Source: Isurus oxyrinchus | Lineage: Eukaryota | Length of the DNA: 64,000 nt | NCBI GenBank assembly: GCA_026770705.1 | Contig: JANJGN010000167.1 | Span: 868,001-932,000, forward strand | Direction of reading: 5' to 3' | Shown here: positions 2,671-29,243 of the stretch, piece after piece | Numbering within the stretch: the first letter of the stretch is position 1 | How the letters are laid out: each line of letters opens with the position of its first letter | Program-made: the position numbers and the translations under genes | Notes under the pieces: model-generated | Told to the model about the DNA's origin: nothing | The model's database searches: none | The model's input: the letters and a program-made list of their open reading frames with translations, nothing else

Positions 2671-2809
2671 CTGCGATTATTGCCAGTGTTTTAGGGGTTT
2701 GTGTGAAATCAGGGTTTGGAATTGGAGTAACAGAAACAACAAGGGAAAGAAATATAGACTTAAAATTTACCCAAAAATAAAGACAGGCCCTTGTTGAAAC
2801 CTTGCCTGA

Positions 2810-3075
2810 CCTGGGATTAACACCTCTATGGACAAGATCAGTAAGGTGTCCTGTCCGGGGATTAACATTCAATGGATAGGATCAGCAAGGGGTCCTGTCC
2901 GGGGATTAACATTCAATGGACATGATCAGCAAGGAGTCATGAGGACTCGAAACGTCAACTCTTTTCTTCTCCGCCGATGCTGCCAGACCTGCTGAGATTT
3001 TCCAGGTAATTCTGTTTTTGTTTATGATCAGCAAGGGCTCCTGTCCGGGGATTAACATTCAATGCACAGGGATCC
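2810..3075 (+). repeat. Short tandem repeat, 44-bp unit (GGGGATTAACATTCAATGGA..GATCAGCAAGG..TCCTGTCC), ~4 copies, interrupted by an insertion
   Basis: Units start at ~2813, 2857, 2901 and ~3047. Confidence 0.9.
2935..3023 (+). mobile_element. 5'-truncated Penelope-like terminal fragment with 13-bp target-site duplication
   Basis: ATGATCAGCAAGG is present at 2922-2934 and 3024-3036. The insert GAGTC-atgag-GACTC-GAAACGTC...GATGCTGCCAGACCTGCTGAG...TTTTTGTTT resembles the common fish/shark Penelope-type terminus (recognised from memory). Confidence 0.75.
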
Positions 3076-4971
3076 TAGGAGAGAGATGAGAGACATTCCA
3101 AACATGTCCGAGAATCAGGGGGTGGAGTCTGTATACAGCTTCATCAGGATAAATGTGGATCAGGATATTCCCAAACCAGTCCCAAAACAACAAAATCCCT
3201 CTGGAGAGGGTGAACAGCCTCCCCACTCTGGTTCAATGTGTGTTTGTTTATGTGTGTGTGTGTGTTTCTGTGTGTCTCAACATGCTTTTGAACTGTGATT
3301 TGTTTGTTTTGGGAAGTTGCTGAGAGCCTGAGTTGAGAATGGAAACTCTGGGATCTTGCTGTGCTTTTTTGTGTTTTTTAATAATGTCCTAGTTTTGGTC
3401 CTTTTAACCAATTCTGTTTCTTTTTCTCCTGAGAAATTTGTATTCTGCAGACTGGAAGATGAGGATCCAAAGAAGGAAAGTCTGGGACAAGGACAAGGAG
3501 CTTCTTCCAGAGAGGGATAGACTGAGGCCTGGTCCACAGGCTTCACCCACCTGAGTTGTGTCTGTTTATTACCCCAATCGAGGTTTGATTTTTATATTTG
3601 AGATACAGAGAGTGAGTGAGATACAAAGAGAGATACAGAGAGAAACACAGGGAGCGGAAAGGTCTCTCAATCTGTTTTAGCCTGTGGTTTATAACTGGGA
3701 TATTTTTGTATTTGGGTGTTGCTAAGAGATTGTGTAACTGTGAAGTGGGGGGAGGATGGCGTGTGGAATCCCTGGCTCTTGCTGTGCTATTTTGTTTAGA
3801 AATGTTCTTGCTTTGTGTTTTAGTCAATTCTTTTCCCTTTCTCTTTTTCCCAGGAATTTGGGGTTCGAAGACTGCAATGTGACTATGAATCCATGGGTAG
3901 GTGCTTTTCCCCAACTTGGATAGATGGACTCAGGCCTGCTCCACACGCCCCCCACCCACCCATGTGAGTTGTGTCTCTTTATGACCCCGAGCTTTAATTT
4001 TAATCTCGGAGGGACCCTGGTTTTTGGGTCATTGATGAACCAGTTTCTGTTAGATGATGGGGTGCTGGATTTTGAAACCCTAGAGTTAAAATATCCGGGC
4101 CTTGCGATTAGTCACAAACACATTAACCCTTCAGTGTGTGACAAAGAGGAGATTAAAAATCTGAAATCTGAAGCTGTTTAAAAGCTTGTTATAATTCCAA
4201 AATACAACAGATGGGGAGATAGTGCGATGAAGTGGAATCTGTTCAGTCAGATTCACTGGGGCCATTACTGTTCAGTTTACTGAGATTCTGAATTTAGTTT
4301 TACCTGTGTGATTTTCTGTGTCTTTATCCCTCCAGCTTTCTCTCTCTCTCTTTCCAGCTCTCTTTGTGTCCATTTTAAACTTTAGTCATTAAAAACTACC
4401 CCAGAAACAGCAATGTGAGGTTTCATTATTTTCAAAGCGGAGACAGGAACATTTCATCTCTCATTTCAATGCAGAGAACATGAGACAGGGGGATGGAAAA
4501 AAGAAAGGTGGACAGAGAGAATGAGCAAGGAGGAGTGATGGAGAAAGAGGGGGCATGGACAAGGGCCTAGATAGGAGCATGCATCTTTACCCTGAATGTG
4601 AGAAACGGGAGCAGAGAGAGAAAAGGGAGGGAGTGATTGAAACAGAGAGAGAGGAAAGCCGAGGGGAGTGGAGTATAAAAACAGGAGGGGGTGTGGGAAA
4701 GAGAGACAGAGTCTGAGCGTCTCCAGTGTGTAGTCACAAGCTGCCTCCACTCACACCCTCTGAGATAGAGTGAGATGTAAAAATAACTCCTGGGACGGTA
4801 ATTTTAAATACTGTCCCAAAGGAATGAGCTGCCCCTTCCCAAACTGAAAGAGATAGTTTAGCTCCTTCTGGAGACTGATGGGGGTGACAGGGGGAAAAAT
4901 TTTATTTTAGTTTATGCAGTTAACTGTCCTTGTTTTTGTCCTATTAAACAATTCTATCTCTTTTTCTCCAG

Positions 4972-5090
4972 GGAAATTTGTATTCTGAAAACTGGAAGGT
5001 GAGGATCCAAATAGGGAAATTCTGGGACAAGAACAAGGAGCTTCTTCCAGAGCGGGATAGACTGAGGCCTGGTCCACAGGATTCACCCAG
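4972..5090 (+). other. Candidate exon (unit type A) of an unidentified transcript
   Basis: Polypyrimidine tract plus CTCCAG acceptor, and CAG|GTGAGT donor. Open in phase 0: GNLYSENWKVRIQIGKFWDKNKELLPERDRLRPGPQDSP. Paralogues at ~3431-3550 and ~10090-10210 have degraded splice sites. Confidence 0.4.
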
Positions 5091-5427
5091 GTGAGTTGTT
5101 TCAGTTTATTTACCCAACCGAGGTTTAATTTCCATACCTGAGAGACCGAGAGAGACACAGAGAGAGCATGAGTGGGTCAGAGATGTGAGTGAGGTACAAG
5201 GAGAGATACAGAGAGAAACACAAAGGGTGGGAAAGGTCTCTCAATCTGTTTTAGCCTCTGGTTTATAACTGGGATTCTTTTGTATTTGGATGTTGCTAAG
5301 AGATTGTGAATCTGTGAAGCAGGGGGAGGATGGCGTGTGGAATCCTGGGCTCTTGCTGTGTTATTTTGTTTAGAAATGTTCTTGCTTTGTGTTTTAGTCA
5401 ATTCCATTCCCTTTCTCTTTTCCCCAG

Positions 5428-5536
5428 GAATTTGGAGTTTGAAGACTGCAATGTGACTATGAATCCATGGGTCGGTGCTTTTCCCCAGCTTGGATGGATG
5501 GACTCACATCTGTTCTACACCCCCCCACCCACCCTC
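5428..5536 (+). other. Candidate exon (unit type B), in frame with the preceding type A unit
   Basis: TTTCTCTTTTCCCCAG acceptor and GTGAGT donor at 5537. Translates (R)NLEFEDCNVTMNPWVGAFPQLGWMDSHLFYTPPPTL. Paralogues at ~3853-3963 and ~10543-10643. Confidence 0.35.
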
Positions 5537-8500
5537 GTGAGTTGTGTCTCTTTAGGACCCCTGGTTTAATTTTAATCTTGGAGTGATCCTGGTTTTTGAG
5601 TCATTGATGAAGCGGTTTCTGGTAGATGATGGGGTGCTGGATTTTGAAACCCTGGGGATAAAATATCCCGGCCTTGCGATTAGTCACAAACACATTAACC
5701 CTTTGGTGTGTGACAAAGAGGAGATTAAAAATCTCAACCATGAGGCTGTTTAGAAGCTTGTTATAATTCCAAAATAACACAAGGAGTTTAGCACCTTCTG
5801 GAGACTGACGGGTGGACTGGGGGAACCATTTTAATTCAGTTTATGCAGCTTTTGTGTGTGGATTTCTCTCTCTCTCTCTCTCTCTAAGTCTTCATCCTCC
5901 TGATCTTGCTGTGCCCACAGTGGCCTGTGGCATTTTTTCACAAGAGAGAGAGAGAAAGGAGAGGTCAGGGGAAAGAGGGGGAGAGATAACAAAACAGAGT
6001 GGAGTTGGGGGTTGTGGGGGGTGGTTGGTGAGAAGACACAGGGTCCAGGGGGAGAGAGGGCTCATCGTTTGCACTCACTTCCCAGCTCCCAGTCAGGGCC
6101 TTCCAGAAAGTGAGATTTGATACGAACTGAAATCCCGAGGCAGTGATTTTAAAATGTCTCCTGAGAGAATCCAGCTGCTTCCCAGTTTGAGATTCAGCCC
6201 TTTCAGGGCGTTGTGGTGGTGGGGAGGGAGGGAACTGAGGGGATGGCTCCAGACTGGGGCATTCACATGGGGAAGTTGGGGAGAGAGAGGCTTTTACAGC
6301 AGGTGTGGAGATAAGGAAAGTCATGGGATCCTGCTGTGTAAAAAAATAAAACACAGATGCCACCAGCCTTTCCTGAACTGCATCAGTAACCACACTTGAT
6401 AGAAATTTGTTCATGGCGGGTGAAGCAGTGGGAGAGAGAGAGAGAGACAGAGAGAGAGAGAGGGAGAGAGAGGGAGAGGGCCTGAAATGAGAACCCAGAG
6501 CCTCTGCGAAGGCTTCTTCTCACCCCCAGAGCCATGTCGGTTTGTGTTAGACAGGCCGGGCCACGGGCTTTCCTGGGTTAAATGGAAGGGGCAGCAGCCA
6601 TTTCAATTCAGTTTAATGTAAATCTGAGGGTGCGGGCTGGTGGTGAGGGTGGGGGGAGAGCAGCCCCCAGTCTCTCTCTCTCCAGCCAATTCTCTCCATA
6701 TTTCAACTTTCAATAAAATGTATAAAAACACCAATGAGATTTGTCGTTAGTTTAATTAGGGCAGGGGGAGGATGTTGGGGGAGAGCGAGACGGGGCAAGG
6801 CCCATTCCCCACTCAGTGTCCCACAATCCTCAGCCAATACATTTTGAACTGGTCATGAGCAGGTGGGAAGTGGGATCTTGCTGTGTACACATAGTTTCTC
6901 CCCCTCCCGCTCTGTTCCTTGCTCCCACAACAGTGACCACACTTTCAAATTAAAAGATTGAGGCAAAGGAGGAGGGTGCGGAGGGAGGGGTGATGGGGGC
7001 AGAGAGAGAGGAAGGTTCGGAGGGAGGGGTGATGGGGGCAGAGAGAGAGGAGGGTACTTAGTGAGGGGTGATGGGGCAGAGAGAGAGAGAAAGAGGAACA
7101 GAATGAGGGAGAGTTTGACAGAGAGGGGGTGAGGGTGTTGGGAGCTCGGGGGCAGGGGAAGGAGACACAGGCTCTGGGGGTATCCTCCTCCATTGGGGGA
7201 CTGCTCGTGGGACCCTGCTGTGTAGAATTGCATTAGTTTCAACTCTAATAACTATTTCATTTCTAGGGGATCTGATTGTGGGACTATAAATGTAAAACAT
7301 GGACAGTGTGGTGTGGATTTTTGTCGATGGTGAGACAGGAACTTTCCAGAGTGCCCTTGTACCAGCACTCACAGGGGTGTGGAATTAAAAAGGCCGGAAC
7401 TTGTACCCGGGTCTAATTCACTAAGAGCACAGGGCCCGTGTCTGAGAGCAATTCATGTAACGGTGAAAGGTAAAGGTTCTGGCAGCTAATTTAATTCACT
7501 TCACGGATCCCTGATTGTCAAATTCTCAGCCTGCTCTCTCCCCCTCGGTCTCTCTAATGGACAAAGAGAGAGGGAGAGAATGGGGGGAGAGAGTGAGGGG
7601 AAAGAGAGGGACTGAGATAACAAAACAAGAGGAGGGGGTGAATAGATACAGGATTTCTGGGGGTCTCCAATGTGTAGATCTGCCCAGCTCCCACTCACAT
7701 CTTTTAGAAAAGGCTGAATTGCAAAAATGAATCCAGGGACAGTGAAGCAAGTGACTCAGTAACAATGAGAGCACTTTAAACATTGGTGCATTCGCTGCAA
7801 AGTGCTCAGTCTTTCTGAGGTTCTGAAGGAGTAGGGGGTCCTCTCTGTCTTAGACTCTGTCTAACTTGCTCCCGCTCTCTCTCTGTGTTGAAACACTTCC
7901 ACATTTAAAAAGTGTCTGGCAGAGCTGGCTGCATCCTGTGGGATCTTGCTGTGCACAAATTGCCTGCAGTGTTTCATACTGTGCCACCAGTTAATTTATT
8001 AAAAATGTGCTGATTGCACTAATTTCCTGTCCCTCAGGAGCCCTTTACAAAGTCCAAACTGTGAGAGTGTATAAAAGATTGGGCTAATTCCTGAACAATG
8101 CTGGAAATGTGTCTCCCTGTCCCCATCTGGATAGCATCACATTGCTGCCTGTGGGATCCCCCTGTGCAAAAACGGCCTGCAGCTTTTCCTGAACTGCAAC
8201 AGGGACCACTCGACGTTAAACAGAAACCAGTTCATTGACTGTCATTCAAACGAAAAAGCCCTGACCCTGGGTCAAGGCTTGTTCTAAACTCCAGGATTGT
8301 CTTTGTGGGAGTTTGAGGGTTTCTGGGGGAGGGGGTGGAACTTCCCTGTCTCTGTCACTCCAGCTTTCTCTCTCCCTCTCTCTTTCCAGACACTTCTTTT
8401 TCTGTTTCATCTTGTAGTAAACTGACACGAAACTCATAATGTGATTTGTCATTATATGATTTGGGGGGTTAAGGCGACGTTGGGTCCCATTTCCCTCTCA

Positions 8501-9614
8501 CTCATTCCAGCCCTGTCTGGGAGGTTTGGGCTGAGCTGTGGAGGGAGAGGAATGTTGTGTTAGACTGGGGCCTATTCCTGTCCATGAGCGTTAATGCAGC
8601 CTCTGTGACTAGGCCCAATTCACGGCCTCATTTCAGGCCCCTCGGGAGGGGCTGTGCATTGTCTGAACTCCCCAATAAGGCCTGTGTTTTAGGCCATGAA
8701 TGTGACGGAGAAACAAAATGTGCAGCAGCCTCTTGAATTCATTTGATTGAGGATGTGATTGTGCATTTTCCTGCTGTCTCTCTCTCTCTCTCTCTCTCGA
8801 TTGTGAGTTATCAGGGAGGGAGGGAGAGAGAAATGGGAGAGGGAGGGAAACAGGGAGAGAGAAAGGGGCAGGGTGGGAAGAGACGAGAAGCTGGGGGTCT
8901 CCGGTGTGCAGTCACTGCCCAGCTCCCAGCCTCTGGTGAAAAGACCCTCACTCGCAGCCTCCCGCAAGTTTGGATTAGTGAAAAGAAACTGTGTCACTGA
9001 GGGCCAGTCTGTGCTGTTTTATTGAAAGATAAGTCCCTGCTTTGAATTTTTCATCAATTCTCAACCTAAAACACTTTGACTTCACTGTGAGAAGGATGCA
9101 GTTTGTTTGGGATCTTTCTGTGCGGAAATACCAAACAGGGTTTCCCAAATGACCAACAGGGAGCACACTTTGTTACTTAATTCCACGACTGGTGAAGCGG
9201 GCAGGAGAGCCTGAAGTGAAATTTGTTCACGTGAGGCTGTTTCCCCGAATAATGCTGCTGTTTTAGACACTGCGATGAATTGAGGCTTGAATGAAATGTG
9301 CGGGAACCATTTTGAATTGAGTTTATTGAGGCCCTGACTGTGGTTTTCTCTCTCTCTCTCTCTCTGCCGTTCCATATTCTGGCATGTGAGAAACAGAGAG
9401 AGTGAAAGGGAGGTGGGAAAGAGGATAGATTGAGGGAAATATTGAGTGGGGAGGTAACAACGGGAAGGAGGGGCGGTTATGAGGGGGACACAGGAACTGG
9501 GTTTTCTCCAGTTTGGCCTTTGTCCCTCGTGGGGCTGTTTGTGTGATCCTGCTGTGCACTGCAATTGTAATCATTGATGTATTCTCAAACCAGTCCCATA
9601 ACAACAAACTCCCT

Positions 9615-9946
9615 NNNNNNNNNNNNNNNNNNNNNNNNNNNNNNNNNNNNNNNNNNNNNNNNNNNNNNNNNNNNNNNNNNNNNNNNNNNNNNNNNNNNNN
9701 NNNNNNNNNNNNNNNNNNNNNNNNNNNNNNNNNNNNNNNNNNNNNNNNNNNNNNNNNNNNNNNNNNNNNNNNNNNNNNNNNNNNNNNNNNNNNNNNNNNN
9801 NNNNNNNNNNNNNNNNNNNNNNNNNNNNNNNNNNNNNNNNNNNNNNNNNNNNNNNNNNNNNNNNNNNNNNNNNNNNNNNNNNNNNNNNNNNNNNNNNNNN
9901 NNNNNNNNNNNNNNNNNNNNNNNNNNNNNNNNNNNNNNNNNNNNNN
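9615..9946. other. Assembly gap (332 N)
   Basis: Run of N. Confidence 1.
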
Positions 9947-12900
9947 AAACTGTGATTTGTTTCTGTTGGAAAGTTGCTGAGAGATTGACATGAGAGTGGA
10001 AACTCTGGGATTTTCCTGTGCTATTGTGTTTTATTAAAAAAATGTCCTTGCTTTTGTCTTTTTGACCAATTTTATCTCTTTTTCTCCTGAGAAATTTGTA
10101 TTCTGAAAATTGGAAGGTGAGGATCCAAAGAGGGAAAGTCTGGGATAAGGACAAGGAGCTTCTTCCAGAGAGGGAGAGACTGAGGCCTGGTCCACAGGCT
10201 TCACCCACATGAGTTGTGTCTGTTTACTACCCCAATCGAGATTTAATTTTCGACTCTGTGGGACAGAGAGTGAGTGAATGAGTGAGGGGGACAGAGATGC
10301 GAGTGGAAAGAGAGAGAGAAACACAGGGAGCGGGAAAGGTCTCTCAATCTGTTTTAGACTCGGGTTTATATCTGGGATATTTTTATATTTGAATGTTGCT
10401 GAGAGATTGTGTAACTGTGAAGGTTGGGGAGGTGGTGGTGGTTGGTGGTGAAATCCTGGGCTCTTGCTGTGCTAATTTGTTCAGAAATGTCCTTGCTTTG
10501 TGTTTTAGTCAATTATTTTCTCTCTTTCTCTCTTTTCCCCAGGAATTTGGAGTTTGAAGACTGCAATGTGACTATGAATCCATGGGCAGGAGCTTTTCCC
10601 CAGAGATGGATATACTGAGGCCTTGTCCACAGGCTTAACACACGTGAGTTGTGTCTCTTTAATCTTGGAGGGACCCTGGTTTATGGGTTATCGATGAAGC
10701 GGTTTCTGTTAGATGATGGGGTGCTGGATTTTGAAACTCTGGGGTTAAAATATCCGGGCCTTGCGATTCGTCACAAACACATTAACCCTTTGGTGTGTGA
10801 CAAAGAGGAGATTAAAAGTCTGAAATCTGAAGCTCTCTAAAAGCTTGTTACAATTCCAAAATAAGACAGGCGGGGAGACAATGCGATGAAGCAGACTGTT
10901 CAAGCAGATTCACATTGGTCTTTACAGTTCAGTTTACTGAGGTCCTGACTTTAGATTTACTTTCTCTCTCTCTCTCTCCAGCTTTGTTTCTATCTGTCTA
11001 TCCCTCTCTCTCTCTCAGGGGATGTGGGAATGAGAGACAGCGTGTTGACACAGGTCGCCTCCACTCACATCCTCTGAGATAGAATGAGATGTAAAAATAA
11101 ATCCTGGGATAGTAATTTTAAAAAGTGTCCCAAAGGAAGGAGCAGCCCCTTCCCAAACTGGAAGAGGGAGTTTATCACCTTCTGGAGGCTGATGGGGGCG
11201 GGGGCGGGGGGGCGGGAACAGGGGGAATCATTTAAATCAGTGTTTACAGCTTCTGTTTGTGGGTTTGTCTCTCTCTCTCTCTTTCTATCTTCATCCTTCC
11301 AAATGGATGGACAGATTTAGTGATGGAGAGAGGGAGGGAGAGCAAAACAGGAAGAGTTGAGAGTGTGGGGTTGGGGTAGGGAGAGGAGGGGGGTGGTGAA
11401 GAGACACAGGGACAAGGTGGGTTTGCGGGAGGGGTCTCCAGTGTAAGGTCTCTGCCCAGCTCTCACTCTCATCCTTGCAGAAAGTGTGACGTTCACAGAG
11501 AAATCCCAGCTCGGTGATCAGTTTAAAAAGCTTCCTCAGTTTCTAGAGGGAGTTTAAACCTTGCTGGAGACTGTAGGGGATGTCTCCAGTCTTTGGGGGG
11601 GTGGGGGGGAGGGTACCCACACCCACAAGGTGGGCGGGGGTGGGAGTTTGGTGAGGTGGGGAAGGGGGTTTGCATTAGGTGTGGTGGATGTGGGGATGGG
11701 TTAAGGGGTTGAGGGGAGAGAGAAGGGCTGTTTCCCATCTGGAAATGTTTAGATTGCTGGTAATGGGATCTTGCTGTGCACACAGTGGCCTGCGGCCTCT
11801 GCCCACACAACACTTTTTATTTGAAACTATTAATTCACGGACAAGAAAGCAGGTGCGAAGGGCTCGAATTAAACATTTTAAACTTGAAAGTGGCGAGGGG
11901 GAGGGTGTGTGGGGAGAGAAGAAGAGGGGGTGGGGTTAATGAATCCTTTCCACAAGGCACTGGAGGCATTTTCAGCTCTTATCACATTGCCGCTTGTGGG
12001 ATCGCACTGTGCAGCCAGTGGGCTGCTGTCAGTGTCACAACACTCGTGCAGAGAGAGAGAGAGAGAGAGAGAGAAACCCACATTGAGAAACTCCCAGATA
12101 ACTCCATTTAAAAAGTGCCACCATTTTGGGATCTTCCTGTGTACAAATCCCCCCCTAACGACAGCACTTTAAAAAAAATAATCCGTGGCCTCTGAAGCAT
12201 TCTCAATGGGCGGGAATCGAAGTCCTTAACTTGGAGCCGGGTGTGATGGGGGAATAAAGCTTGCGTTGGAGGCAGAGGGATGAAGGTGACAGTGAAATGA
12301 CATGCACAGCTGGAGAGGGGGGGACCATTTCTATTCAGTTTGATAGGATTGGGATTGTTGGATTTCTATGTCTCTCTCTCTCTCTCTCTGCATCTCCATC
12401 TTCTGGCATGTGAACGAGGAAGGGAGAGAAACAGGGAAAGAGAAAGAGAGAACAGGGACAGAGAGAGGGAAACAGGGATAGAGAGGGAGAGAGAGAGAGC
12501 AAGCAGAGGTCAGGGGACAGAGAGGGGGAGAGATAACATAACAGAGCAGAGTTAGGGGCTGGGGGGGTGATTAAAAGACACAGGGTCTGGGTGGGGAGGG
12601 GTTTTCCCCGTGCAGTCAGTGCCCAGCTCTCCCAGTCACAGCCTTCCAGAAATTGGGATTTGACACCCACTGAAATCCTGAGGCACTGATTTTAAAATGT
12701 CTCCTGAGCGAATCCAGCTGCTTCCCAGTTTGAGTTTCAGCCCTTTCAGGGGTGGGAGGGGACAGCCCCAGACTGGAAATTCACACAGGGTTGGGGAGGG
12801 GGAGTGTAGAGAGAGGGTTTCACAGCAGGTGTGGAGATTGGGAAAGTCGTAGGATCCTGCTGTGTAAAATCAAAAAGACCACCAGCACTTTAATAAACTT

Positions 12901-13584
12901 CAGCAATGGCCACACTGGATAACAATGGGGTCAAGCAGTGTGAGGCACTCGGAGAGAGGAAGAGAGAGGGAGAGGGGCTGAAATGGAAACCCTGAGCCTG
13001 GGTGAAGGTGTGTTCTCATCCCAGAGTCATGTCCGTGTATGATAGACAGGCCGGGCCATGGGATTTCCAGGTGTAAATGGAAGGGGCAGCAGCCAGTTGA
13101 ATTCAGTTGAATTTCGATCTGTGGAGGGCTTGTGATGGGGGAGGAGAGGGGAGAGCATCGCCCAGTCTCTCTCTCTCTCTCCAGCCATTCTGTCCATACT
13201 CTATCTTTCAATAAAATGTATAAAAAACCCAATGAGATTTGTCCTTATTTTAATTTGTGGGGTGTGTGGGGGCGGTGTTGGGGGAGGGAGGTCTGAGGCC
13301 CATTTCCCACTCCCTTTCCTGCCATCCTCAGCCAAGGTATTTTAAACTGGCCATGAGTAGGCGGGGTGTGGGATCTTGCTGTGCACATAGGGTCTGCCCC
13401 CTGTTCCTTGCTCTCCAGCAGTGACCGCACTTTTAAAATAAAAGAGTGAGGGAAAAGAGGAGGGGGGGGGGTGGTGGAGGGGGGGGGGGGGGGGGGGGGG
13501 GTGGGGGGTAGATGGGGCAGAGAGAAAGAGGAAGAGAATGAGGGACAGCTAAACATAGAGTAGGTCAGAGCAGACAGGGGCTCG

Positions 13585-16500
13585 GAGGTAGTGGAAAGAG
13601 ACACAGGGAGTTGGGGTGTTGGGGGGTTGAGGAAAGAGACACAGCGTGTGGGGGTGTTGGGGGTTAGGGGAAAGAGACACAGGGTGTGGGGGTGTTGGGG
13701 GGTAGGGGAAAGAGACACAGGGTGTGGGGGTGTTGGGGGGTAGGGGAAAGAGACACAGGGTGTGGGGGTGTTGGGGGTTAGGGGAAAGAGACACAGGGTA
13801 TGGGGGTGTTGGGGGGTAGGGGAAAGAGACACAGGGTGTGGGGGTGTTGGGGGTAAGGGAAAGAGACACAGGGTGTGGGGATGTTGGGGGGTTGAGGAAA
13901 GAGACACAGGGTGTGGGGGTGTTGGGGGTTAGGGGAAAGAGACACAGGGTGTGGGGGTGTTGGGTGTTGGGGAAAGAGACACAGGGTGTGGGGGTGTTGG
14001 GGGGTAGGGGAAAGAGACACAGGGTGTGGGGGTGTTGGGTGTTGGGGAAAGAGACACAGGGTGTGGGGGTGTTGGGTGGTAGGGGAAAGAGACACAGGGT
14101 GTGGGGGTGTTGGGTGTTGGGGAAAGAGACACAGGGTGTGGGGGTGTTGGGTGTTGGGGAAAGAGACACAGGGTGTGGGGGTGTTGGGGGGTAGGGGAAA
14201 GAGACACAGGGTGTGGGGGGGTTGGGGGTTAGGGGAAAGAGACACAGGGTGTGGGGGTGTTGGGGGTTAGGGGAAAGAGACACAGGGTGTGGGGGTGTTG
14301 GGGAAAGAGACACAGGGTGTGGGGGTGTTGGGGGGTAGGGGAAAGAGACACAGGGTGTGGGGGTGTTGGGGGTTAGGGGAAAGAGACACAGGGTGTGGGG
14401 GTGTTGGGGGTTAGGGGAAAGAGACACAGGGTGTGGGGGTGTAGGGTGTTGGGGAAAGAGACACAGGGTGTGGGGGTGTTGGGGGTTAGGGGAAAGAGAC
14501 ACAGGGTGTGGGGGTGTTGGGGGTTAGGGGAAAGAGACACAGGGTGTGGGGGTGTTGGGGGTTAGGGGAAAGAGACACAGGGTGTGGGGGTGTTGGGGGT
14601 TAGGGGAAAGAGACACAGGGTGTGGGGGTGTTGGGGGGTAGGGGAAAGTGACACAGGGTGTGGGGATATTGGGGGTTAGGGGAAAGAGACACAGGGTGTG
14701 GGGGTGTTGGGGGGTAGGGGAAAGAGACACAGGGTGTGGGGGTGTTGGGGGTTGGGGGAAAGAGACACAGGGTGTGGGGGTGTTGGGGGTTAGGGGAAAG
14801 AGACACAGGGTGTGGGGGTGTTGGGGGTTAGGGGAAAGAGACACAGGGTGTGGGGGTGTTGAGGGTTAGGGGAAAGAGACACAGGGTGTGGGGGTGTTGG
14901 TTAGGGGAAAGAGACACAGGGTGTGGGGGTGTTGGGGGTTAGGGGAAAGAGACACAGGGTGTGGGGGTGTTGGGGGGTTGGGGAAAGAGACACAGGGTGT
15001 GGGGGTGTTGGGGGTAAGGGAAAGAGACACAGGGTGTGGGGGTGTTGGGGGGTAGGGGAAAGAGACACAGGGTGTGGGGGTTTTGGGTGTTGGGGAAAGA
15101 GACACAGGGTGTGGGGGTGTTGGGGGTTGGGGGAAAGAGACACAGGGTGTGGGGGTGTTGGGGGGTAGGGGAAAGAGACACAGCGTGTGGGGGTGTTGGG
15201 GGTTAGGGGAAAGTGACACAGGGTGTGGGGGTGTTGGGGGTAGGGGAAAGAGACACAGGGTGTTGGGGTGTTGGGGGGTAGGGGAAAGAGACACAGGGTG
15301 TGGGGGTGTTGGGGTTTGGGGGAAAGAGACACAGGGTGTGGGGGTGTTGGGGGTTAGGGGAAAGAGACACAGGGTGTGGGGGTGTTGGGGGGTAGGGGAA
15401 AGAGACACAGGGTGTGGGGGTGTTGGTGGTTAGGGGAAAGAGACACAGGGTGTGGGGGTGTTGGGTGTTGGGGAAAGAGACACAGGGTGTGGGGGTGTTG
15501 GTGGTAAGGGGAAAGAGACACAGGGTGTGGGGGTGTTGGGGGTTAGGGGAAAGAGACACAGCGTGTGGGGGTGTTGGGGGTTAGGGGAAAGAGACACAGG
15601 GTGTGGGGGTGTTGGGGGGTAGGGGAAAGAGACACAGGGTGTGGGGGTGTTGGGGGGGTTGGGGGAAAGAGACACAGGGTGTGGGGGTGTTGGGGGTTAG
15701 GGGAAAGAGACACAGGGTGTGGGGGTATTGGGGGGTTGGGGAAAGAGACACAGGGTGTGGGGGTGTTGGGGGGTAGGGGAAAGAGACACAGGGTGTGGGG
15801 GTGTTGGGGGTTGGGGAAAGAGACACAGGGTGTGGGGGTGTTGGGGGTTAGGGGAAAGAGACACAGGGTGTGGGGGTGTTGGGGGTTAGGGGAAAGAGAC
15901 ACAGGGTGTGGGGTGTTGGGGGTAGGGGAAAGAGACACAGGGTGTGGGGGTGTTGGGGGGTTGAGGAAAGAGACACAGGGTGTGGGGGTGTTGGGGGGTA
16001 GGGGAAAGAGACACAGGGTGTGGGGGTGTTGGGGTTTAGGGGAAAGAGACACAGGGTGTGGGGGTGTTGGGGGTTAGGGGAAAGAGACACAGGGTGTGGG
16101 GGTGTTGGGGGGTAGGGGAAAGAGACACAGGGTGTGGGGTGTTGGGGGGTAGGGGAAAGAGACACAGGGTGTGGGGGTGTTGGGGGTTAGGGGAAAGAGA
16201 CACAGGGTGTGGGGGTGTTGGGGGTTAGGGGAAAGAGACACAGGGTGTGGGGGTGTTGGGGGTTGGGGGAAAGAGACACAGGGTGTGGGTGTTTGGGGGG
16301 TAGGGGAAAGAGACACAGGGTGTGGGGGTGTAGGGTGTTGGGGAAAGAGACACAGGGTGTGGGGGTGTTGGGGGTTAGGGGAAAGAGACACAGGGTGTGG
16401 GTGTTTGGGGGGTAGGGGAAAGAGACACAGGGTGTGGGGGTGTAGGGTGTTGGGGAAAGAGACACAGGGTGTGGGGGTTTGGGGGGTAGGGGAAAGAGAC

Positions 16501-17960
16501 ACAGGGTGTGGGGGTGTTGGGGGTTAGGGGAAAGAGACACAGGGTGTGGGGGTTTGGGGGGTAGGGGAAAGAGACACAGTGTGTGGGGGTGTTGGGTGTT
16601 GGGGAAAGAGACACAGGGTGTGGGGGTGTTGGGGGTTAGGGGAAAGAGACACAGGGTGTGGGGGTGTTGGGTGTTGGGGAAAGAGACACAGGGTGTGGGG
16701 GTGTTGGGGGTTAGGGGAAAGAGACACAGGGTGTGGGGGTGTTGGGGGTTAGGGGAAAGAGACACAGCGTGTGGGGGTGTTGGGGGTTAGGGGAAAGAGA
16801 CACAGGGTGTGGGGGTGTTGGGGGGTAGGGGAAAGAGACACAGGGTGTGGGGGTGTTGGGGGGGTTGGGGGAAAGAGACACAGGGTGTGGGGGTGTTGGG
16901 GGTTAGGGGAAAGAGACACAGGGTGTGGGGGTATTGGGGGGTTGGGGAAAGAGACACAGGGTGTGGGGGTGTTGGGGGGTAGGGGAAAGAGACACAGTGT
17001 GTGGGGGTGTTGGGTGTTGGGGAAAGAGACACAGGGTGTGGGGGTGTTGGGGGTTAGGGGAAAGAGACACAGGGTGTGGGGGTGTTGGGTGTTGGGGAAA
17101 GAGACACAGGGTGTGGGGGTGTTGGGGGTTAGGGGAAAGAGACACAGGGTGTGGGGGTGTTGGGGGTTGGGGAAAGAGACACAGGGTGTGGGGGTGTTGG
17201 GGGGTAGGGGAAAGAGACACAGGGTGTGGGGGTTTGGGGGGGTTGGGGGAAAGAGACACAGGGTGTGGGGGTGTTGGGTGTTGGGGAAAGAGACACAGGG
17301 TGTGGGGGTGTTGGGTGTTGGGGAAAGAGACACAGGGTGTGGGGGTGTTGGGGGGTAGGGGAAAGAGACACAGGGTGTGGGGGTGTTGGGGGGGTTGGGG
17401 GAAAGAGACACAGCGTGTGGGGGTGCTGGGTGTTGGGGAAAGAGACACAGTGTGTGGGGGTGTTGGGGGTTAGGGGAAAGAGACACAGGGTGTTGGGGTG
17501 TTGGGGGTTGGGGGTAGAGACACAGAGTGTTGGGGTGTTGGGGGTTGGGGGTAGAGACACAGGGTGTGGGGGTGTTGGGGGGTAGGGGAAAGAGACACAG
17601 GGTGTGGGGGTTTGGGGGTTAGGGGAAAGAGACACAGAGTGTGGGGGTGTTGGGTGTTGGGGAAAGAGACACAGGGTGTGGGGGTGTTGGGGGGTTAGGG
17701 GAAAGAGACACAGAGTGTGGGGGTGTTGGGGGTTAGGGGAAAGAGACACAGGGTGTGGGGGTGTTGGGGGTTAGGGGAAAGAGACACAGGGTGTGGGGGG
17801 TGTTGGGTGTTGGGGAAAGAGACACAGGGTGTGGGGGTGTTGGAGGGTAGGGGAAAGAGACACAGGGTGTGGGGGTGTTGGGGGTTAGGGGAAAGAGACA
17901 CAGGGTGTGGGGGTATTGGGGGGTAGGGGAAAGAGACACAGGGTTGGGGAATGTGACACA
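13585..17960 (+). repeat. Homogeneous 37-39 bp G-rich minisatellite (GAAAGAGACACAGGGTGTGGGGGTGTTGGGGGKTAGGG), roughly 115 copies
   Basis: Directly visible. The AAAGAGACACAG core is nearly invariant and the G-run spacer varies. All overlapping ORFs (PTPQHPHTLCLFP / GKRHRVWGCWG) are artefacts. Confidence 0.98.
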
Positions 17961-20809
17961 GGTTGTTGGGGTGTCCTCCATTGTGGAACTGCTAGTTGGA
18001 TCCTGCTGTGCAGCACTGCCTGAATTGCAACTCGAATAACTATTTCATTGACCGGGGGATCTGATTGTGCATTTATCAATATAAAACAAGGCCAGTGTGG
18101 TGTGGATTTTAGTCGATGGTGAGACAGGAACTTTCCAGAATGCCTTTCCATCCAGCACTCACAGGGGCGTGGAATTAAAAAGGCTGGAACTTGTACCCGG
18201 GTCTAATTCACCGAGAGCACAGGGCCCGTGTCTGAGAACAATTCATGTAACAGTTAAAGGTCAAAGCCTGGCAGCCAATTTAATTCACTTCACTGATCCC
18301 TGATTGTCAAATTCTCAGTCTCTTCTCTCTGTCTCAGTCTTTCCATCTTTCTCTCTCAATGAGAGAAATATGTGAAGAAGAGAGAGAGAGAGTGGATAGT
18401 GAGAGAGGGGAAACACAGCAGAGAGAGCAAAACAGAGGAGGGGAGTGGGGTGAATATACACAGACTCTGCCCCATTGTCCAAATTGAGAGCAAAACAGAG
18501 GAGGGGACTGGGTGTGAATATACACAGACTCTGCCACATTGTCCAAATTACAAAAATAAACTCAAGGAGTGTGAAGCAAGTGACTCAGTAACAAGGAGAG
18601 CATTCTAACAATTCATTCATTTAGTGTAACTCTCTCAATTTTACTGAGGTTCTGAAGGGGGGTCTTCACTGTCTTAGTCTCATTCTCTCTGTATAATTTT
18701 CCACATTTAAAAAGTGGAAAGAAACGCTGACTGCACCCTGTGCGATCTTCCTGTGGACAATATGCCTGCATCGTTTCATACTGAGCCACAACCAGTTAAT
18801 TTATTAAAAATGAGCTTATTGGGCTAATTTCCTTTCCCTCAGGAGACCTTCACCAAGTCCAATCTGTGAGAGTGTGTAAATGATTGTGCTAATTCCTGAA
18901 AAATGCCGGTGTTTGAGGCAGGGCCATGAATTGGAGGGTTCAGTTGGAAGGTGGGAGCAGCCACTGGAGTTCAGTCTGTCTCTCTCAGATGTGTCCCTAC
19001 GATACAACAGAGAGAGAGAGAGAGAGAGATGGGGGAGAGTGAGGGAAACAAGAATACAGTGAAACAGAGGCAGGGGCAGATATAGCAAAACAGAGGAGAG
19101 GGGAGGCAGCGGTGAATAGACACAGGAGCTGGGTGTCTCCAACGTGTAGTCTCTGCCCAGCTCCCAATCACACCCTTCTAGAAAAGTTGAATTTGCAAAA
19201 ATAAAGCTCAGGAGGGTGAAGCAAGTGACTCAGTAACAATGAGAGCATTTTAAAAATTCATTCATTCAGTGTAATGCTCTCTTGAATTCATTTGATTGAG
19301 GATGTGATTGTTCATTTTACTGCTGTCTCTCTCTTTCACTCTCTCGCTTGTGAGTTATCAGTGAGGGAGGGAGATAGAAAGGGGAGAGGGAGGGAAACAG
19401 GGAGAGAGAGGGGCAGGGAGGGAAGAGGCGAGGAACTGGGGGTCTCCGGTGTGCAGTTAGTGCCCAGCTCCCAGTCTCTGGAGAGTAGAACCTCATTACC
19501 TGCCTGTCAGAATGTTGGATCTGTGAAAAGAAACTGTGTCACTGAGGGCCAGTCTGTGCTGTTTTATTGAAAGATATTGAAAGTGGATAGATTGAGGGAA
19601 ATATTGAGTGGGGAGGTAACAGATGGAAGGAAGGACAGTTATAAGGGAGACACATGATCTGGGTATTCTCCAGTGTGGCGTTGTACCTCGTGGGGCTGTT
19701 TGTGGGATCCTGCTGTGCACTGCTATTGTAAACATTGATGTGTTGACTTTCCAATGTATCTGAGGCCCTGGAATTGAACTTCTAAATGTGACGCTGTGTA
19801 AAGTTGTGTTATTTGTAGATTATTTATTATTATATTTGCTGTGTTGTAGGCCAGATGGTGAATTGGATGGTCACGGGTTGGGGGCAGGGGGTTGAATTTC
19901 ACTCACTGATTTCTCTGAAGGCTTAAAAAGCTTTGCAAAATAATCAGCTCCCACACCCACCCCCAGTTTTATAGAGGGAGATTAGCCTTTTCTGGGGTAG
20001 GGGAGCAAGGGGACCTGACTAACATCACCTTGCTTGTGGGATCTTGCTGTCTGTAAATAGCCTGCAGCCTGTCCTGCACTGCAACCGTGGCTTCCCTCCA
20101 TGAATTCAGTCCACCGAAGGGCTGATTGAGGATTGCTCCCATCATTTCCTCTCCCATCATTTCTCTGTGTAAATCATAGATAAATATTAAACATAGCCAC
20201 ACTGCATCATTATTTAAAAAGGAGAGACAGAAACTTTCCAGAGTGCATTTCGATCAAGATTGATCCCAAGGAAGAGATAGCGACGGGTTATTGAGCAACA
20301 GAGAGGGAAAGATGAGCAGAGTTGGGGGGGAGGCTAGATAGGTACAGGGAGAGGGGGAGAGAAACAGGGTGAGAGAGAGAGAGGGAGAGAGGGGGAGAGA
20401 ACCAGAGTGAGAGACTGGGAGAGAGAAACAGAGAGAGAGAGGGAGAGAGGTGACAGTGTTACAACTGGAAAGTGCAATATAAATATTTTGTGTCCAAACA
20501 ATAGTAGCACTGGATTGAGCAGGTAGAGGGGGGTGGGGTCAGTGAATGGGAGAGGGACAGTGAGGGGGGAATGATCAGTGTTTGTGCATCTTCATCTCAT
20601 TTGAAATCTTTTACCCCCAGTGTCTGGGTTTAACAACAGGAGACATGTGTATAAAATGTTTCCCTCACCTCACCCTATTAACTGAGATTGTGGATGTGAG
20701 TGAGAGGAATCCTGGGATCTTGCTGTGTTTTTTTTTGTTTCAATCATCTGTATGCTTTATTTTAATCAATTCCCATTCCTCTCTCTCTCTCTCTCTTTCT
20801 CTCTCCCAG

Positions 20810-20990
20810 GTAGAATGGTTTTGGAAGCTGCAGCTTCAGACGAAGCAGAGAGAGAATTGTTTTGCCATCAGGAGTCCTCGGACAGGAGCTATAACCAGAG
20901 AGAAAAATAAGTACGAATGTATCCGTTCCTTTGTCACTCATCCTTATGCCCCGAGAAAGGATGAGTTGAATTTTCACACTGACAATTGCG
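20810..20990 (+). other. Candidate isolated exon
   Basis: Long (CT)n tract plus CCCAG acceptor, and G|GTCAGT donor. Open frame VEWFWKLQLQTKQRENCFAIRSPRTGAITREKNKYECIRSFVTHPYAPRKDELNFHTDNC. Unique sequence among repeats. Confidence 0.3.
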
Positions 20991-21564: not shown

Positions 21565-21750
21565 AGGAGCAGAAAGAGAGAGAGAGAGAGAGAGAAAGCA
21601 GAGAGAAGGAGCTGAGAGAGAGAAGGAGCAGAGATAGAAATAAACAGCAGAGAGAGAGAGAAGGAAGAGAGATAGAGAGAAGGAGCAGAGAGAGAGAGAG
21701 AGAAAATGAGCCGAGATAGACAGAGAGAGAGAAGCAGCAGAGAGAGAAGG

Positions 21751-21785
<35 letters not shown>

Positions 21786-22362
21786 AGCAGAGATAGAGAG
21801 AGAAGGAACAGAGAGAGAGAGAGAAGGAACAGAGAGAGAGAAGGAACAGAGAGAGAGAAGGAGCAGAGAGAGAGAAGGAACAGAGAGAGAGAGAGAGAGA
21901 AGGAGCAGAGAGAGAGAGAGAAGGAACAGAGAAAGAAGGAACAGAGAGAGAAGGAACAGAGAGAGAAGGATCAGAGAGAGAAGGATCAGAGAGAGAAAGA
22001 ACAGAGAGAGAGAAGGATCAGAGAGAGAGAAGGAACAGAGAGAGAAAGAACAGAGAGAGAGAAGGAGCAGTGAGAGAGAAGGAACAGAGAGAGATGGAAG
22101 GAACAGAGAGAGAGAGAGAGAAGGAGCAGAGAGAGAGAAGGAACAGAGAGAGAGAAGGAACAGAGAGATGGAAGGAACAGAGAGAGAGAGAGAGAAGGAG
22201 CAGAGAGAGAGAAGGAACAGAGAGAGATAGAGAGAAGGAACAGAGAGAGAGAAGGAACAGAGAGAGAGAAGGAACAGAGAGAGAGAAGGAACAGAGAGAG
22301 ATAGAGAGAAGGAACAGAGAGAGAGAGAGAAGGAACAGAGAGAGTGAAGGAACAGAGAGAGC
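21565..22362 (+). repeat. Purine-rich compound repeat (GA)n + AAGGAACAG/AAGGAGCAG
   Basis: Directly visible. The R/E-rich ORFs are artefacts. Confidence 0.95.
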
Positions 22363-23296
22363 GAAAAAAAACATGATGATATTTGGGAAGGGTGGGGGGA
22401 TTCAGTCCAGCACGGAGACGGGGGAGCGGGAGCTAGTACGTCATGGTGATAGAGGATTGGAGGAAGGAAGCAAGACCAGCGTGGAGCAGTTTTTGGTGCG
22501 TGTGGGGGCGGCGGTGAGAGAGGCGAAGGACTGGCTTAAAACATCTACCCTGATTTTAGGCTGAAAAATGATCCGCAAGAATTTATACCAACTGTGGCAG
22601 TCCCATCATCTGCTGTTCGTGTTTCGTTCAAGCATTATTTGTTTGCAGTCTTTCTCAGTCTTATACCCGGATGTAGAGAGATATTTACTTCATCTTAATT
22701 CAAAGTGTGTTTCCATCCGCTTGATGTTTAATAATTACACACAGTTGAAAATGATCTATAAACATCTGCATTCCAATAGAGATCACACAAAATGGTATAG
22801 TTACTCCAAACCTTGTCATAAAGTGTTCTCGGATATTTTATCTTCCCGCCACTAATTTTCAATGTTTTCTGAACATTGCTGCCATTCTGGCCATTGACCA
22901 TCTCACTCCCTCAGCAGGTTCTTTGTCCATTATTATTACAATCCCTTTCGGCCATATCATGACCTCTTATATGGACATCAGGGACCTTATTGCTGCTGAG
23001 CACTCGGCGCCCCCGGCAGAGCCAGCGACCTGAAAGCTGTGTCTGGATTTCTGCACCGTGGAGATGCAGCCTTGCTAAAATAGCTCAGGGCTTTGCTGAA
23101 ACCATGTCTTTAATATTCTTTGCAGTTTCAGCCTCCATATTTAAGGAAGGATACAATTGCATTGGAGGCGGCACAGCGAGTGTATCGGATTGTTTCATAA
23201 TTTGAACGTTGAACTCAGCCTTTTTGTTAACTGTAGCACTTGGTCCAAGATTCCAAGCGAGCGGAAAAAGTTTCTTCAGGTGACCGTATCCATACA

Positions 23297-29173: not shown

Positions 29174-29243
29174 ATGATCAGCTCAATTATTCTACAAGTA
29201 ACGGAAATTTACTACCCAATTCTAGCAGCCTTTGGTATTCCCG
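29174..29243 (+). CDS. GPR139/GPR142-like class A GPCR gene 1, coding exon 1 (MISSIILQVTEIYYPILAAFGIP)
   Basis: ATG, 23 codons + 1 nt, then G|GTAAGT donor. The IYYP..A..G.P TM1 start is typical of the family. Phase 1 matches exon 2. Missed by the ORF track. Confidence 0.9.

Follow-up and report, generated by a model that had tools for sequence, protein, structure and literature searches.

What produces a cluster of one short word that recurs many times on a single strand of shark DNA? We addressed this question in a window of 64,000 nt from Isurus oxyrinchus (contig JANJGN010000167.1, positions 868,001 to 932,000), whose first third carries such a cluster. A sequence-only reading of this DNA had proposed an array assembled from co-oriented core/tail fragments of DeuSINEs, with a possible regulatory or RNA function. 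Our analysis suggests that the locus is probably a degenerate product of multi-level tandem duplication in repeat-rich shark DNA, which passively multiplied one ~100-130 nt SacSINE1-like 3' piece; several alternatives are weighed below.

The 15-mer copies and nested duplication of the locus

The word TGGGATCYTGCTGTG has 20 matches at no more than 2 mismatches, all on the + strand and all within 3349-20727, whereas shuffled sequences gave a mean of 0.33 and a maximum of 2 (0 of 100 shuffles reached 20), and both the recurrence and the strand exclusivity described previously are thus confirmed. At 3 mismatches the array contains 24 matches on + and 1 match on -; 23 of the + matches were counted as motif copies, the match at 3310 being excluded as a degenerate upstream word. 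About 11 more degenerate words (3-4 mismatches) were detected in the array, where the remainder of the window would predict about 2; therefore, decayed copies exist. The copies fall into three classes, 13 of 23 having SINE-like flanks (class A) and the other 10 being bare 15-mers in other contexts (classes B and C):

5871-5986, +, class A, 15-mer at 5899, SINE-3'-like flank, pair of 11764
6299-6429, +, class A, 15-mer at 6324, pair of 12850
6843-6970, +, class A, 15-mer at 6871, pair of 13369
7911-8022, +, class A, 15-mer at 7939, pair of 18741
8126-8244, +, class A, 15-mer at 8152, longest SINE-like extent
9081-9199, +, class A, 15-mer at 9108
11738-11853, +, class A, 15-mer at 11764, pair of 5899
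11969-12068, +, class A, 15-mer at 11997 (3 mismatches), upstream flank like the stand-alone SINE
12104-12199, +, class A, 15-mer at 12127
12825-12943, +, class A, 15-mer at 12850, pair of 6324
13342-13457, +, class A, 15-mer at 13369, pair of 6871
18721-18826, +, class A, 15-mer at 18741, pair of 7939
20014-20129, +, class A, 15-mer at 20037
3349-3363, +, class B, bare, 68 nt upstream of an acceptor-like site
3772-3786, +, class B, bare (3 mismatches), 68 nt upstream of an acceptor
5346-5360, +, class B, bare, 68 nt upstream of an acceptor
10006-10020, +, class B, bare, 71 nt upstream of an acceptor-like site
10457-10471, +, class B, bare, 72 nt upstream of an acceptor
20713-20727, +, class B, bare, 83 nt upstream of an acceptor
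7208-7222, +, class C, bare, after truncated module 2, pair of 17996
9542-9556, +, class C, bare, after truncated module 2, pair of 19703
17996-18010, +, class C, bare, directly after the minisatellite, pair of 7208
19703-19717, +, class C, bare, pair of 9542

Self-BLAST of the region revealed collinear duplicated blocks, and tandem duplication is evident at several levels, all head-to-tail. These comprise an old monomer built of modules, an exon-like module present in repeated copies, a duplication of ~6 kb, and a minisatellite of 4.4 kb. The major blocks are as follows:

3150-9614, +, unit 1 of the duplication, ~6.4 kb, containing 11 motif copies (self-BLAST and alignment to unit 2)
9560-19745, +, unit 2 of the duplication, ~5.8 kb and in addition the minisatellite, following unit 1 head-to-tail and containing 10 motif copies (self-BLAST)
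9615-9946, no strand, assembly gap of 332 N; the paralogous unit-1 stretch is about 90 bases
13587-17949, +, 38-bp G-rich minisatellite, 116 copies, 92% matches, expanded from the beginning of a module 2 at the site paralogous to 7130-7190
19746-20910, +, tail with 2 further motif copies and a diverged exon-like unit (motif and tile searches)

Between the two units, 4725 of the 6465 unit-1 bases align at 83-90% identity in aligned columns, and the start of unit 2 overlaps the last ~55 bases of unit 1 (3166-3200 matches 9580-9614). Inside unit 1 an exon-like block is itself duplicated (3385-4204 resembles 4925-5776). The minisatellite accounts for 25% of the interval, and its unit corresponds to the beginning of module 2 at 7130-7190. 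Eight motif positions are paired between the ~6 kb duplicates; therefore, the 23 copies represent 14 positions and are not independent. Motif spacing ranges from 130 to 4627 bp. The 200-900 bp suggested previously cover 13 of 19 gaps, or 16 of 22 when all 23 copies are counted, but not the 4627-bp gap, which is filled by the minisatellite. No tandem period containing the 15-mer was found among periods up to 500.

GA/CT tracts recur in the array, as described earlier, together with three further modules, for which the following copies were identified:

4678-4799, +, module 2, then module 4 (4790-4860)
6012-6144, +, module 2, then module 4 (6135-6210)
7625-7744, +, module 2
8858-9000, +, module 2
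11019-11112, +, module 2, a ninth copy absent from the earlier list (37 bits, non-seed)
11382-11515, +, module 2, then module 4
12552-12687, +, module 2, then module 4
19093-19217, +, module 2
19402-19545, +, module 2
5815-5960, +, module 3, then a (CT)n-spacer-(GA)n inverted pair (example)
4258, 4885, 6580, 8711, 9289, 10926, 11211, 12307, and 13075, module 3 elsewhere

Module 2 is present at all eight positions listed for it before; these eight seeded its profile and match by construction, and tile searches link them independently. Partial copies lie at 7148, 9464, and 19646, and all module 2 copies are on +. The suggestion that a more diverged Deu core underlies module 2 was not supported, as this module showed no match to a stand-alone SINE copy in the window in a comparison of low power.

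Searches with 91 tiles returned 241 plus vs 1 minus matches, with only 2 outside the array, both from tile 2851, upstream of the array, and module order recurs along it. These data support serial amplification of a SINE-containing monomer. All copies share one orientation because tandem duplication keeps orientation, so co-orientation needs no functional explanation. The interval is not assembled from SINE fragments, since SINE-like envelopes and bare motifs together cover about 9.5% of its non-N part. The ~6 kb duplication, the minisatellite, and the seven exon-like units had escaped the sequence-only reading.

Relationship to DeuSINEs and to SINE-derived tandem arrays

DeuSINEs combine a head that derives from a tRNA or 5S RNA and bears Pol III A and B boxes, a Deu/Nin core of ~120 bp, a LINE-derived 3' tail, and target-site duplications; the vertebrate Deu domain measures 330 bp, and a 3' stretch of ~160 bp is common to CORE-type CmiSINEs. 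Copies made by retrotransposition would be expected to keep the SINE 3' end. The array piece may match the published SacSINE1 consensus. The DeuSINE of cartilaginous fishes, SacSINE1/SacSINE1-CM, is tRNA-derived and 463 bp long (PMC2746220, PMC5499810); 218,294 copies of SacSINE1-CM are given for elephant shark (PMC5499810), and a headless 109-bp SacSINE1 Deu/tail piece has been reported in skate (PMC2746220). One diverged element in the window served as reference:

47070-47510, +, stand-alone, much diverged DeuSINE-like copy outside the array, with a Nin-like word at 47191 and the 15-mer homologue at 47365

In 13 of 23 array copies, ~100-130 nt resemble the 3' part of this element, which gives the best match beyond the array limits (E 0.54 at 4.8 bits, a score higher than in all 500 of 500 shuffles), and 5 of 23 downstream flanks reach z of at least 3.5 against it in both directions. 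The homology of the repeated piece is weak to moderate and lies 174 nt after the Nin-like word. Together with features of the family, it suggests a SINE ancestry and would place the piece in the 3' portion of a SacSINE1-like element, past the conserved Deu/Nin core by ~50 nt. Two 17-nt marker words taken from the published Deu alignment (Fig. S4, PMC7245038), which are short words and not a profile, were used to examine the core itself: with 3 mismatches allowed, these Nin words matched nowhere in the array and once at 47191. Given the absence of Deu marker words and the placement of the piece beyond the Nin region, its earlier identification as the conserved Deu core is not supported. The reported lack of SINE heads is confirmed, since we found 0 tRNA genes, no strict B box, and no A box in the array, where one loose B-box word lies on the - strand at 19779. 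The array differs from SacSINE1 in having no head, Nin core, or visible tail end and in having multiplied as DNA duplications instead of dispersed insertions.

Could the copies nevertheless stem from over 20 separate SINE insertions that favoured one strand, as might happen inside an intron? Cartilaginous fishes do carry this element in very high numbers (PMC5499810) and six motif positions have no recent paralogue, but paired positions have kilobase flanks in common, and heads and Nin words are absent; when scored against the head and core of the stand-alone copy, only 2 of 22 upstream regions reach the top 5%, roughly what chance would yield. Moreover, the likeness shared by class A copies dies out about 60-75 nt downstream of the motif, before the SINE 3' end would be reached (the reference copy being much diverged), and all 23 copies are clustered on one strand and duplicated with their flanks, whereas DeuSINE copies are dispersed in both orientations. 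Shared kilobase flanks, missing heads, and the single strand largely refute this explanation, which we regard as very improbable.

SINE-derived satellites (sSats) occupy several loci per genome and are often subtelomeric. Tandem repeats derived from SINEs are known in squamate reptiles (PMC10702118) and tandem SINE arrays in bivalves (PMC11481361). As far as the cited parts of these reports describe, they share with our locus co-oriented, head-to-tail copies of a SINE portion (its SINE ancestry here being moderately supported), short loci, variable units, and a likely origin by unequal recombination. However, the SINE piece here contributes about 9% of the sequence and sits in a composite monomer, in place of a regular and mainly SINE monomer, and the array has no regular period, homogenisation, or extended terminal unit reaching the SINE end, while it contains several duplication levels and exon-like modules.

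Conservation of the 15-mer and the exon-like units

In a comparison across old paralogue groups, core identity was 0.88 vs 0.51-0.59 for flanks and about 0.52 for random positions, in line with the earlier impression that the core is better preserved than its surroundings. After recent duplicates had been collapsed, the 15-mer retained 16 copies at no more than 3 mismatches, compared with 6 or fewer for other complex words, 13 for one GA-rich word, and 4-5 in shuffles. Its edges are sharp (13-14 of 14 sequences agree at 12 of 15 positions and at most 9 of 14 outside), and changes along it are uneven, with 26 events of which 0 fall at 4 adjacent positions and 6 at one (p = 0.007 for spread, p = 0.003 for run); CTGT is invariant in 23 of 23 copies. 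The word is kept in 10 copies whose SINE flanks are gone. A flank-only profile gave 11 matches of at least 10 bits, all beside a core, with one weak core-less group only, and the homologous position of the stand-alone element (one copy) is identical at 9 of 15 bases. Between recent duplicates the motif is identical at 109 of 120 positions vs a background of 85.5%, a borderline excess (p = 0.058); with all 15-base windows including gaps as background it is also above (p = 0.034), the pairs not being independent. These conservation results are partly open to selection bias, as the copies were ascertained by the motif itself. Furthermore, CpG content explains part of the core/flank contrast: the core contains no CpG, 25 nt of flank in the stand-alone copy hold 2, and the array is poor in CpG (observed/expected 0.21-0.24).

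Seven exon-like units, all on +, were recognized:

3431-3550, +, type A, donor GT lost, acceptor non-canonical
3854-3963, +, type B, CAG acceptor, GTGAGT donor
4972-5090, +, type A, CAG acceptor, GTGAGT donor, no 15-mer upstream
5428-5536, +, type B, canonical ends
10091-10208, +, type A, donor GT lost, acceptor non-canonical
10543-10643, +, type B, canonical ends, a stop codon interrupting the frame that the 5428 copy keeps open
20810-20910, +, diverged unit, CAG acceptor, weak GT donor

The 15-mer lies 68-83 nt before the acceptor in 6 of the 7 units. The donor GT is lost in 2 of 3 type A copies, the units are kept no better than their neighbours (81-94% vs 87-92%), and searches with their frames, short queries that carry little weight, found no protein relatives. 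The array may be located within, or be a remnant of, a spliced non-coding or 5'-untranslated + strand transcript.

It is possible, although we hold it only tentatively, that the duplications spread the SINE-derived 15-mer as the putative target of a sequence-specific protein and that selection kept the word. The candidate binder might be a DNA-binding factor (e.g., a zinc-finger protein) or an RNA-binding protein on a + transcript, such as a putative splicing regulator 68-83 nt before acceptors, with TGGGATC-x-x-x-CTGTG as the kept pattern. No other complex word of the array is kept as well as the 15-mer, whose sharp edges, site-like variation with invariant CTGT, retention in three unrelated flank contexts, and position before six acceptors would fit such a role. 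Mammalian AmnSINE1 copies act as enhancers (PMC4824008) and share DeuSINE ancestry and a possibly constrained sub-part; according to the cited part of that source, they are single dispersed copies, conserved across species and with tested activity, whereas the present case is a tandem cluster of a 15-nt word beyond the Nin core. Against selection stand the ascertainment of copies by motif, the borderline excess between recent duplicates, the decayed copies, the CpG effect, and the fact that the sole type A unit with intact splice sites (4972) has no 15-mer.

The same sharp edges might arise if the 15-mer were a recombination junction, surviving unselected as a shared word for module exchange through microhomology or template switching. 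One word does join different upstream and downstream flanks; for example, the copy at 11764 has the upstream flank of 8152 and the downstream flank of 5899 and 11997. However, most upstream flanks of non-paired copies have no detectable likeness, so reciprocal swaps cannot be shown, and the uneven variation within the word is unexplained, making this origin unlikely.

RNA folding, formation, and significance of the array

An array transcript could, alternatively, act as a structured lncRNA or small-RNA precursor, with SINE-derived hairpins whose 5' arm is the 15-mer and with (CT)n-spacer-(GA)n stems. One hairpin register is paired in 69% of cells vs 37-52% when slid (5 of 500 shuffles reach 69%), (CT)n/(GA)n pairs fold with z -2.4 to -5.5 in 7 of 8 cases tested, the exon-like units suggest a + strand transcript, and elephant-shark miRNA precursors overlap SacSINE1 (PMC5499810). 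Yet, according to the cited part of that report, these precursors sit in the SacSINE1 head and Deu region, which are absent from the array. The remaining 31% of hairpin cells are broken, the 3' arm is missing in 10 of 23 copies, and folding is weak for single copies (z -1.8 to +0.6, 8 tested) and module 2 (z -0.9 to +2.3, 4 tested). RNAalifold predicted 0 pairs for the consensus fold, and pairs changed on both sides (4 vs 3.3 shuffled, 194 of 500 shuffles) are not above shuffles. Rfam gave 0 matches at the gathering score; with E of up to 1 allowed, 35 matches appear, but every one falls far short of that score and most lie on CT/GA tracts, which fold well by composition. The suggested RNA function is therefore not supported, and we consider it rather improbable.

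Passive duplication, our preferred explanation, accords with the collinear blocks, the paired motif positions, the strand bias of tile matches, the borderline p value between recent duplicates, and the unconserved exon-like units, and the array as such requires no function. Counted against it are the retention, sharp edges, and uneven changes of the 15-mer, its survival without SINE flanks, and the 9 of 15 identities in the stand-alone copy. Under passive and presumably neutral duplication, a headless SINE 3' piece would have joined a modular monomer of 0.5-0.9 kb (module 3, (CT)n, (GA)n, module 2, module 4, and the SINE piece), which might have been copied head-to-tail about ten times long ago. 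Copies would then have decayed and been cut and reshuffled, joining the 15-mer to new flanks, including an intron-end and exon-like module that was itself copied. Subsequently, as the sequence shows, a ~6 kb block was duplicated and the exon block once more (83-90% identity), and the start of one module 2 expanded into the 4.4 kb minisatellite. The likely engine is unequal crossing-over with slippage at G-rich and purine/pyrimidine tracts.

If this neutral history is correct, the locus offers a worked example of how repeat-rich regions of sharks grow by nested duplication with SINE scraps, of interest for repeat annotation only. A more far-reaching interpretation, which we consider doubtful, is that a word of 15 nt, originating in the 3' portion of a DeuSINE, became a homotypic cluster of 14 or more sites selected as a putative protein-binding element; the word would have become free of the rest of the SINE and, with six copies at a fixed distance from the repeated-exon acceptors that follow them, would represent a SINE-born splicing or transcription element. 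If so, bindable function would lie outside the Nin core, and tandem amplification would be a route of SINE exaptation. The role of conserved inner DeuSINE parts is listed as unresolved in the cited part of PMC4824008; a constrained 15-mer would provide a concrete, assayable word for it and a binding-site cluster derived from tandem copying instead of many insertions.

Positions 1-22 kb are strongly G-skewed, have a GC content of 45-61%, and contain three large arrays of simple-repeat or minisatellite type. Quadruplex-type motifs number 129 on + and 1 on - in 1-21000, whereas the other 43 kb hold 3 on + and 2 on -. Small chromosomes and chromosome ends of sharks are likewise rich in simple repeats and GC (PMC10620051), although a modular array of this kind is not among the features described in the cited part of that work. 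The array region adjoins members of an expanded GPR139-like family; an elasmobranch host is confirmed by the GPCR at 31463-32362, for which the 120 best matches listed are all from sharks or rays, the best at 77%.

Nested duplication within the array

Self-comparison of the array revealed nested head-to-tail duplication. Two large units, namely unit 1 (~3150-9600) and unit 2 (~9560-19745), share collinear sequence at 4725 of 6465 bases, with aligned columns 83-90% identical, and unit 1 contains an internal duplicate of its own. An allelic or assembly duplication was rejected because the units are 10-17% different. Beneath them lies an older monomer, composed of module 3, (CT)n, (GA)n, module 2, module 4, and a recurrent 15-nt motif (the 15-mer), in about ten broken cycles. 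Of 242 non-self matches obtained with 91 tiles, 241 fell on the + strand; 332 bases of the interval are N.

The sequence-only reading had reported that the 15-mer recurs on the + strand alone, and 20 copies with at most 2 mismatches were detected, all on this strand within 3349-20727, compared with 0.33 expected by chance. Three more copies at 3 mismatches bring the total to 23, and a 24th such word (at 3310) was left out of the count. Because eight motif positions are paired between unit 1 and unit 2, the 23 copies represent 14 positions. The proposed spacing of 200-900 bp applies to 13 of 19 gaps but not to the others, one of which (4627 bp) is filled by a 38-bp minisatellite with 116 copies. 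Module 2 was found at all eight places named previously, and a ninth full copy and three partial copies were also identified. The minisatellite (13587-17949, 4.4 kb) grew from the first ~38 nt of one module 2, an origin that is directly readable because a paralogue at 7130-7190 is still unexpanded. It contains 97 quadruplex-type motifs, on the + strand only; within 1-21,000 such motifs number 129 on the + strand and one on the - strand.

The feature is real and mostly explained by nested tandem duplication. Its history was probably a passive one, with neutral carriage of a SINE scrap. The locus would have expanded through unequal recombination and through slippage, in DNA where quadruplex-type and purine/pyrimidine tracts abound; one SINE scrap would have been copied along with its neighbors, and the shared orientation would be a by-product of copying. 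Independent SINE insertions, each contributing a copy, are extremely improbable. In its workings the array resembles the tandem repeats derived from SINEs in reptiles (PMC10702118) and bivalves (PMC11481361), but the regular SINE-dominated monomer of those repeats is lacking here. A literature search covering titles and abstract openings, with most subscription papers outside its coverage, retrieved no such shark array.

Ancestry of the SINE-like piece

The array had been taken as assembled from headless DeuSINE cores. Neither a tRNA-like head nor a Pol III box pair was found in the array, and the identification with the conserved Deu core is not supported. The 15-mer is absent from the Deu region in a published alignment of the part common to hagfish SINEs and AmnSINE1 (PMC7245038, supplement 1), and with 3 mismatches allowed, two 17-nt words of this alignment are not matched anywhere in the array. 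One of them matches outside the array at 47191 (15/17), which is weak by itself because 12 of 100 shuffles also give a match. An element at this place served as the in-window reference:

47070-47510, + strand: stand-alone DeuSINE-like copy, ~450 bp, much diverged, full-length, starting in tRNA-like sequence and carrying a Nin-like word (47191)

A profile of the class A copies (13 copies of the 15-mer with a SINE-like flank) had its top outside match in this element (47379-47441, 4.8 bits, E = 0.54), exceeding 500 of 500 shuffles; it alone found the element, weakly, and a profile of all 23 neighborhoods did not. When flanks were compared with the stand-alone copy, z values of at least 3.5 in both directions were obtained for five of 23 downstream flanks and one upstream flank. 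Pairwise local alignments were mostly not above shuffles (best class A case 4/200), and a 0/200 result at 9542 was set aside since it includes N bases. A 38-nt likeness of 18638-18675 to this copy (18/1000 shuffles), obtained in one test out of 22, was attributed to chance.

In the stand-alone copy, the position homologous to the 15-mer lies 174 nt 3' of the Nin-like word, which is ~50 nt past the end of the published Deu region. Considering both the likeness to this copy and the position beyond the Deu region, the repeated piece is, on sequence comparison, probably DeuSINE-derived but not the conserved core. The array does not consist of a series of DeuSINE elements; the SINE-like piece makes up ~9.5% of the interval. 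Module 2, suggested to be a more diverged Deu core, showed no match to the stand-alone copy. SacSINE1 is reported to be 463 bp long, with cross-species matches at 124-258 and its last ~160 bp in common with CORE-type SINEs (PMC5499810, PMC2746220), and the vertebrate Deu domain is 330 bp (PMC4824008), within whose distal part the 15-mer may fall. Placed via the in-window copy, the 15-mer would lie near SacSINE1 position 300-320. Presumably the SacSINE1 consensus holds the 15-mer in its 3' part, in agreement with this placement.

Contexts and preservation of the 15-mer

The 15-mer occurs in three contexts: class A, class B (n = 6), in which it is bare and located 68-83 nt upstream of acceptor-like sites of a repeated exon-like unit, and class C (n = 4), in which it is bare and 3' of a truncated module 2. 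It is improbable that the word served as a recombination joint. Degenerate 15-mers (3-4 mismatches) at 3310, 3696, 5270, 5286, 7266, 9967, 10389, and 18055 lie either a short way 5' of class B copies or, for two class C copies, ~58 nt 3' of the motif, which suggests that the word was doubled internally at an earlier stage.

3431-5536, 10091-10643, 20810-20910: seven homologous exon-like units, 101-120 nt

Branch-point-like and pyrimidine tracts are conserved among the seven units; a CAG acceptor with a GTGAGT donor is present in four, CAG with a weak GT in one, and GT has been lost in two. The units are no better preserved than neighboring sequence, and their reading frames differ between types. 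A protein-coding repeat was rejected, as the satellites themselves give rise to the array's long open frames, which are of low complexity. Searches with the exon-like frames, whose negative results are weak because the queries were short (one frame per unit type), gave no match among 1.84 billion proteins, two candidates in a first search (neither scored), no relative in another protein search, and unnamed clusters only, under 0.9, in a cluster search. One tail frame had no match in Pfam, and no C2H2 pattern was found in six frames.

As previously claimed, the core is better kept than its flanks: between old groups it is 0.88 identical and flanks are near the random level, in copies chosen by the motif, which introduces a selection bias in conservation tests. 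A flank-only profile produced 11 matches of at least 10 bits, every one beside a core, and recovered four of nine groups when one group was left out at a time. What nested duplication leaves over is selective survival of the 15-mer, which is testable. A selected cluster, with the 15-mer retained as a predicted protein-binding site, would account for its being the commonest complex 15-mer once recent duplicates are collapsed (16 copies, compared with at most 6 for others; in the same count a GA-rich word reached 13 and shuffles 4-5) and for its uneven variation (among 26 events at its 15 positions, CTGT is never hit and the base preceding it is changed six times; p = 0.007 and 0.003). However, besides the choice of copies by motif, recent duplicates show the motif identical at 109 of 120 positions against a background of 85.5% (p = 0.058; p = 0.034 against windows with gaps), about 11 degenerate words occur beyond the counted copies where ~2 are expected, CpG is absent from the core but present in the flank, within a region poor in CpG, and the 15-mer is missing from the intact type A exon-like unit. 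Such selection is considered rather unlikely. In the genomes of bacteria and archaea, a single scan found no stray copy of the 15-mer.

A structured RNA had also been proposed. With the 15-mer as the 5' arm of a hairpin in register, 69% of cells are paired, compared with 37-52% when slid (5/500 shuffles), and the following CT/GA stems fold well, seven of eight with z below -2.3, likely from composition:

5860-5965, 7522-7585, 8765-8850, 9340-9410, 11262-11346, 12365-12455, 18320-18400, 19320-19407: (CT)n-spacer-(GA)n inverted pairs, which fold into long stems

However, changes on both sides of the hairpin are not enriched (194/500 shuffles; covariation score 22/500), RNAalifold predicted no pair, and no Rfam family reached its gathering score, the 35 weaker matches being mostly on CT/GA tracts. 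The pattern fits an inherited, decaying SINE hairpin, and a structured RNA appears quite improbable. One (CT)n-(GA)n spacer holds a 15-mer, at 5899.

Surroundings of the array

From position 1 to 22,400 the + strand is rich in G, and three large simple arrays are located there; the remainder of the window is ordinary (41% GC) and contains reverse-transcriptase remnants as well as two GPCR genes.

Genes and retroelement remnants in the remainder of the window
29174-29243 and 31461-32365, + strand: two-exon GPR139-like receptor gene, with a 70-nt first coding exon ending in a GT donor
50782-51762, + strand: second GPR139-like frame, more diverged (7tm_1 24 bits, below the Pfam cut-off), which may be decaying
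37702-38265, - strand: reverse transcriptase and RNase H-like domain of a broken retroelement
56558-56950, + strand: reverse transcriptase of a broken retroelement remnant
59160-60980, - strand: related LINE-like pieces, broken retroelement remnants

Exon 1 of the two-exon gene is in phase with the long exon 2 and corresponds to the N-terminal end of the best relative in the database. For the receptor frame at 31463-32362, 1219 relatives were found at E <= 1e-20, and the 120 matches listed are all from shark or ray (best 77% identity), which places the window in an elasmobranch; an exact look-up of four GPCR starts found none. A degenerate 22-bp G-rich satellite (4-2669, 122 copies) and a GA-rich array (21571-22366) flank the region on both sides with the same strand skew. 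A 44-bp repeat (2805-3070, four copies) is broken by a short piece, probably a common interspersed element, which is also present at 28441 (+ strand) and 37166 (- strand).
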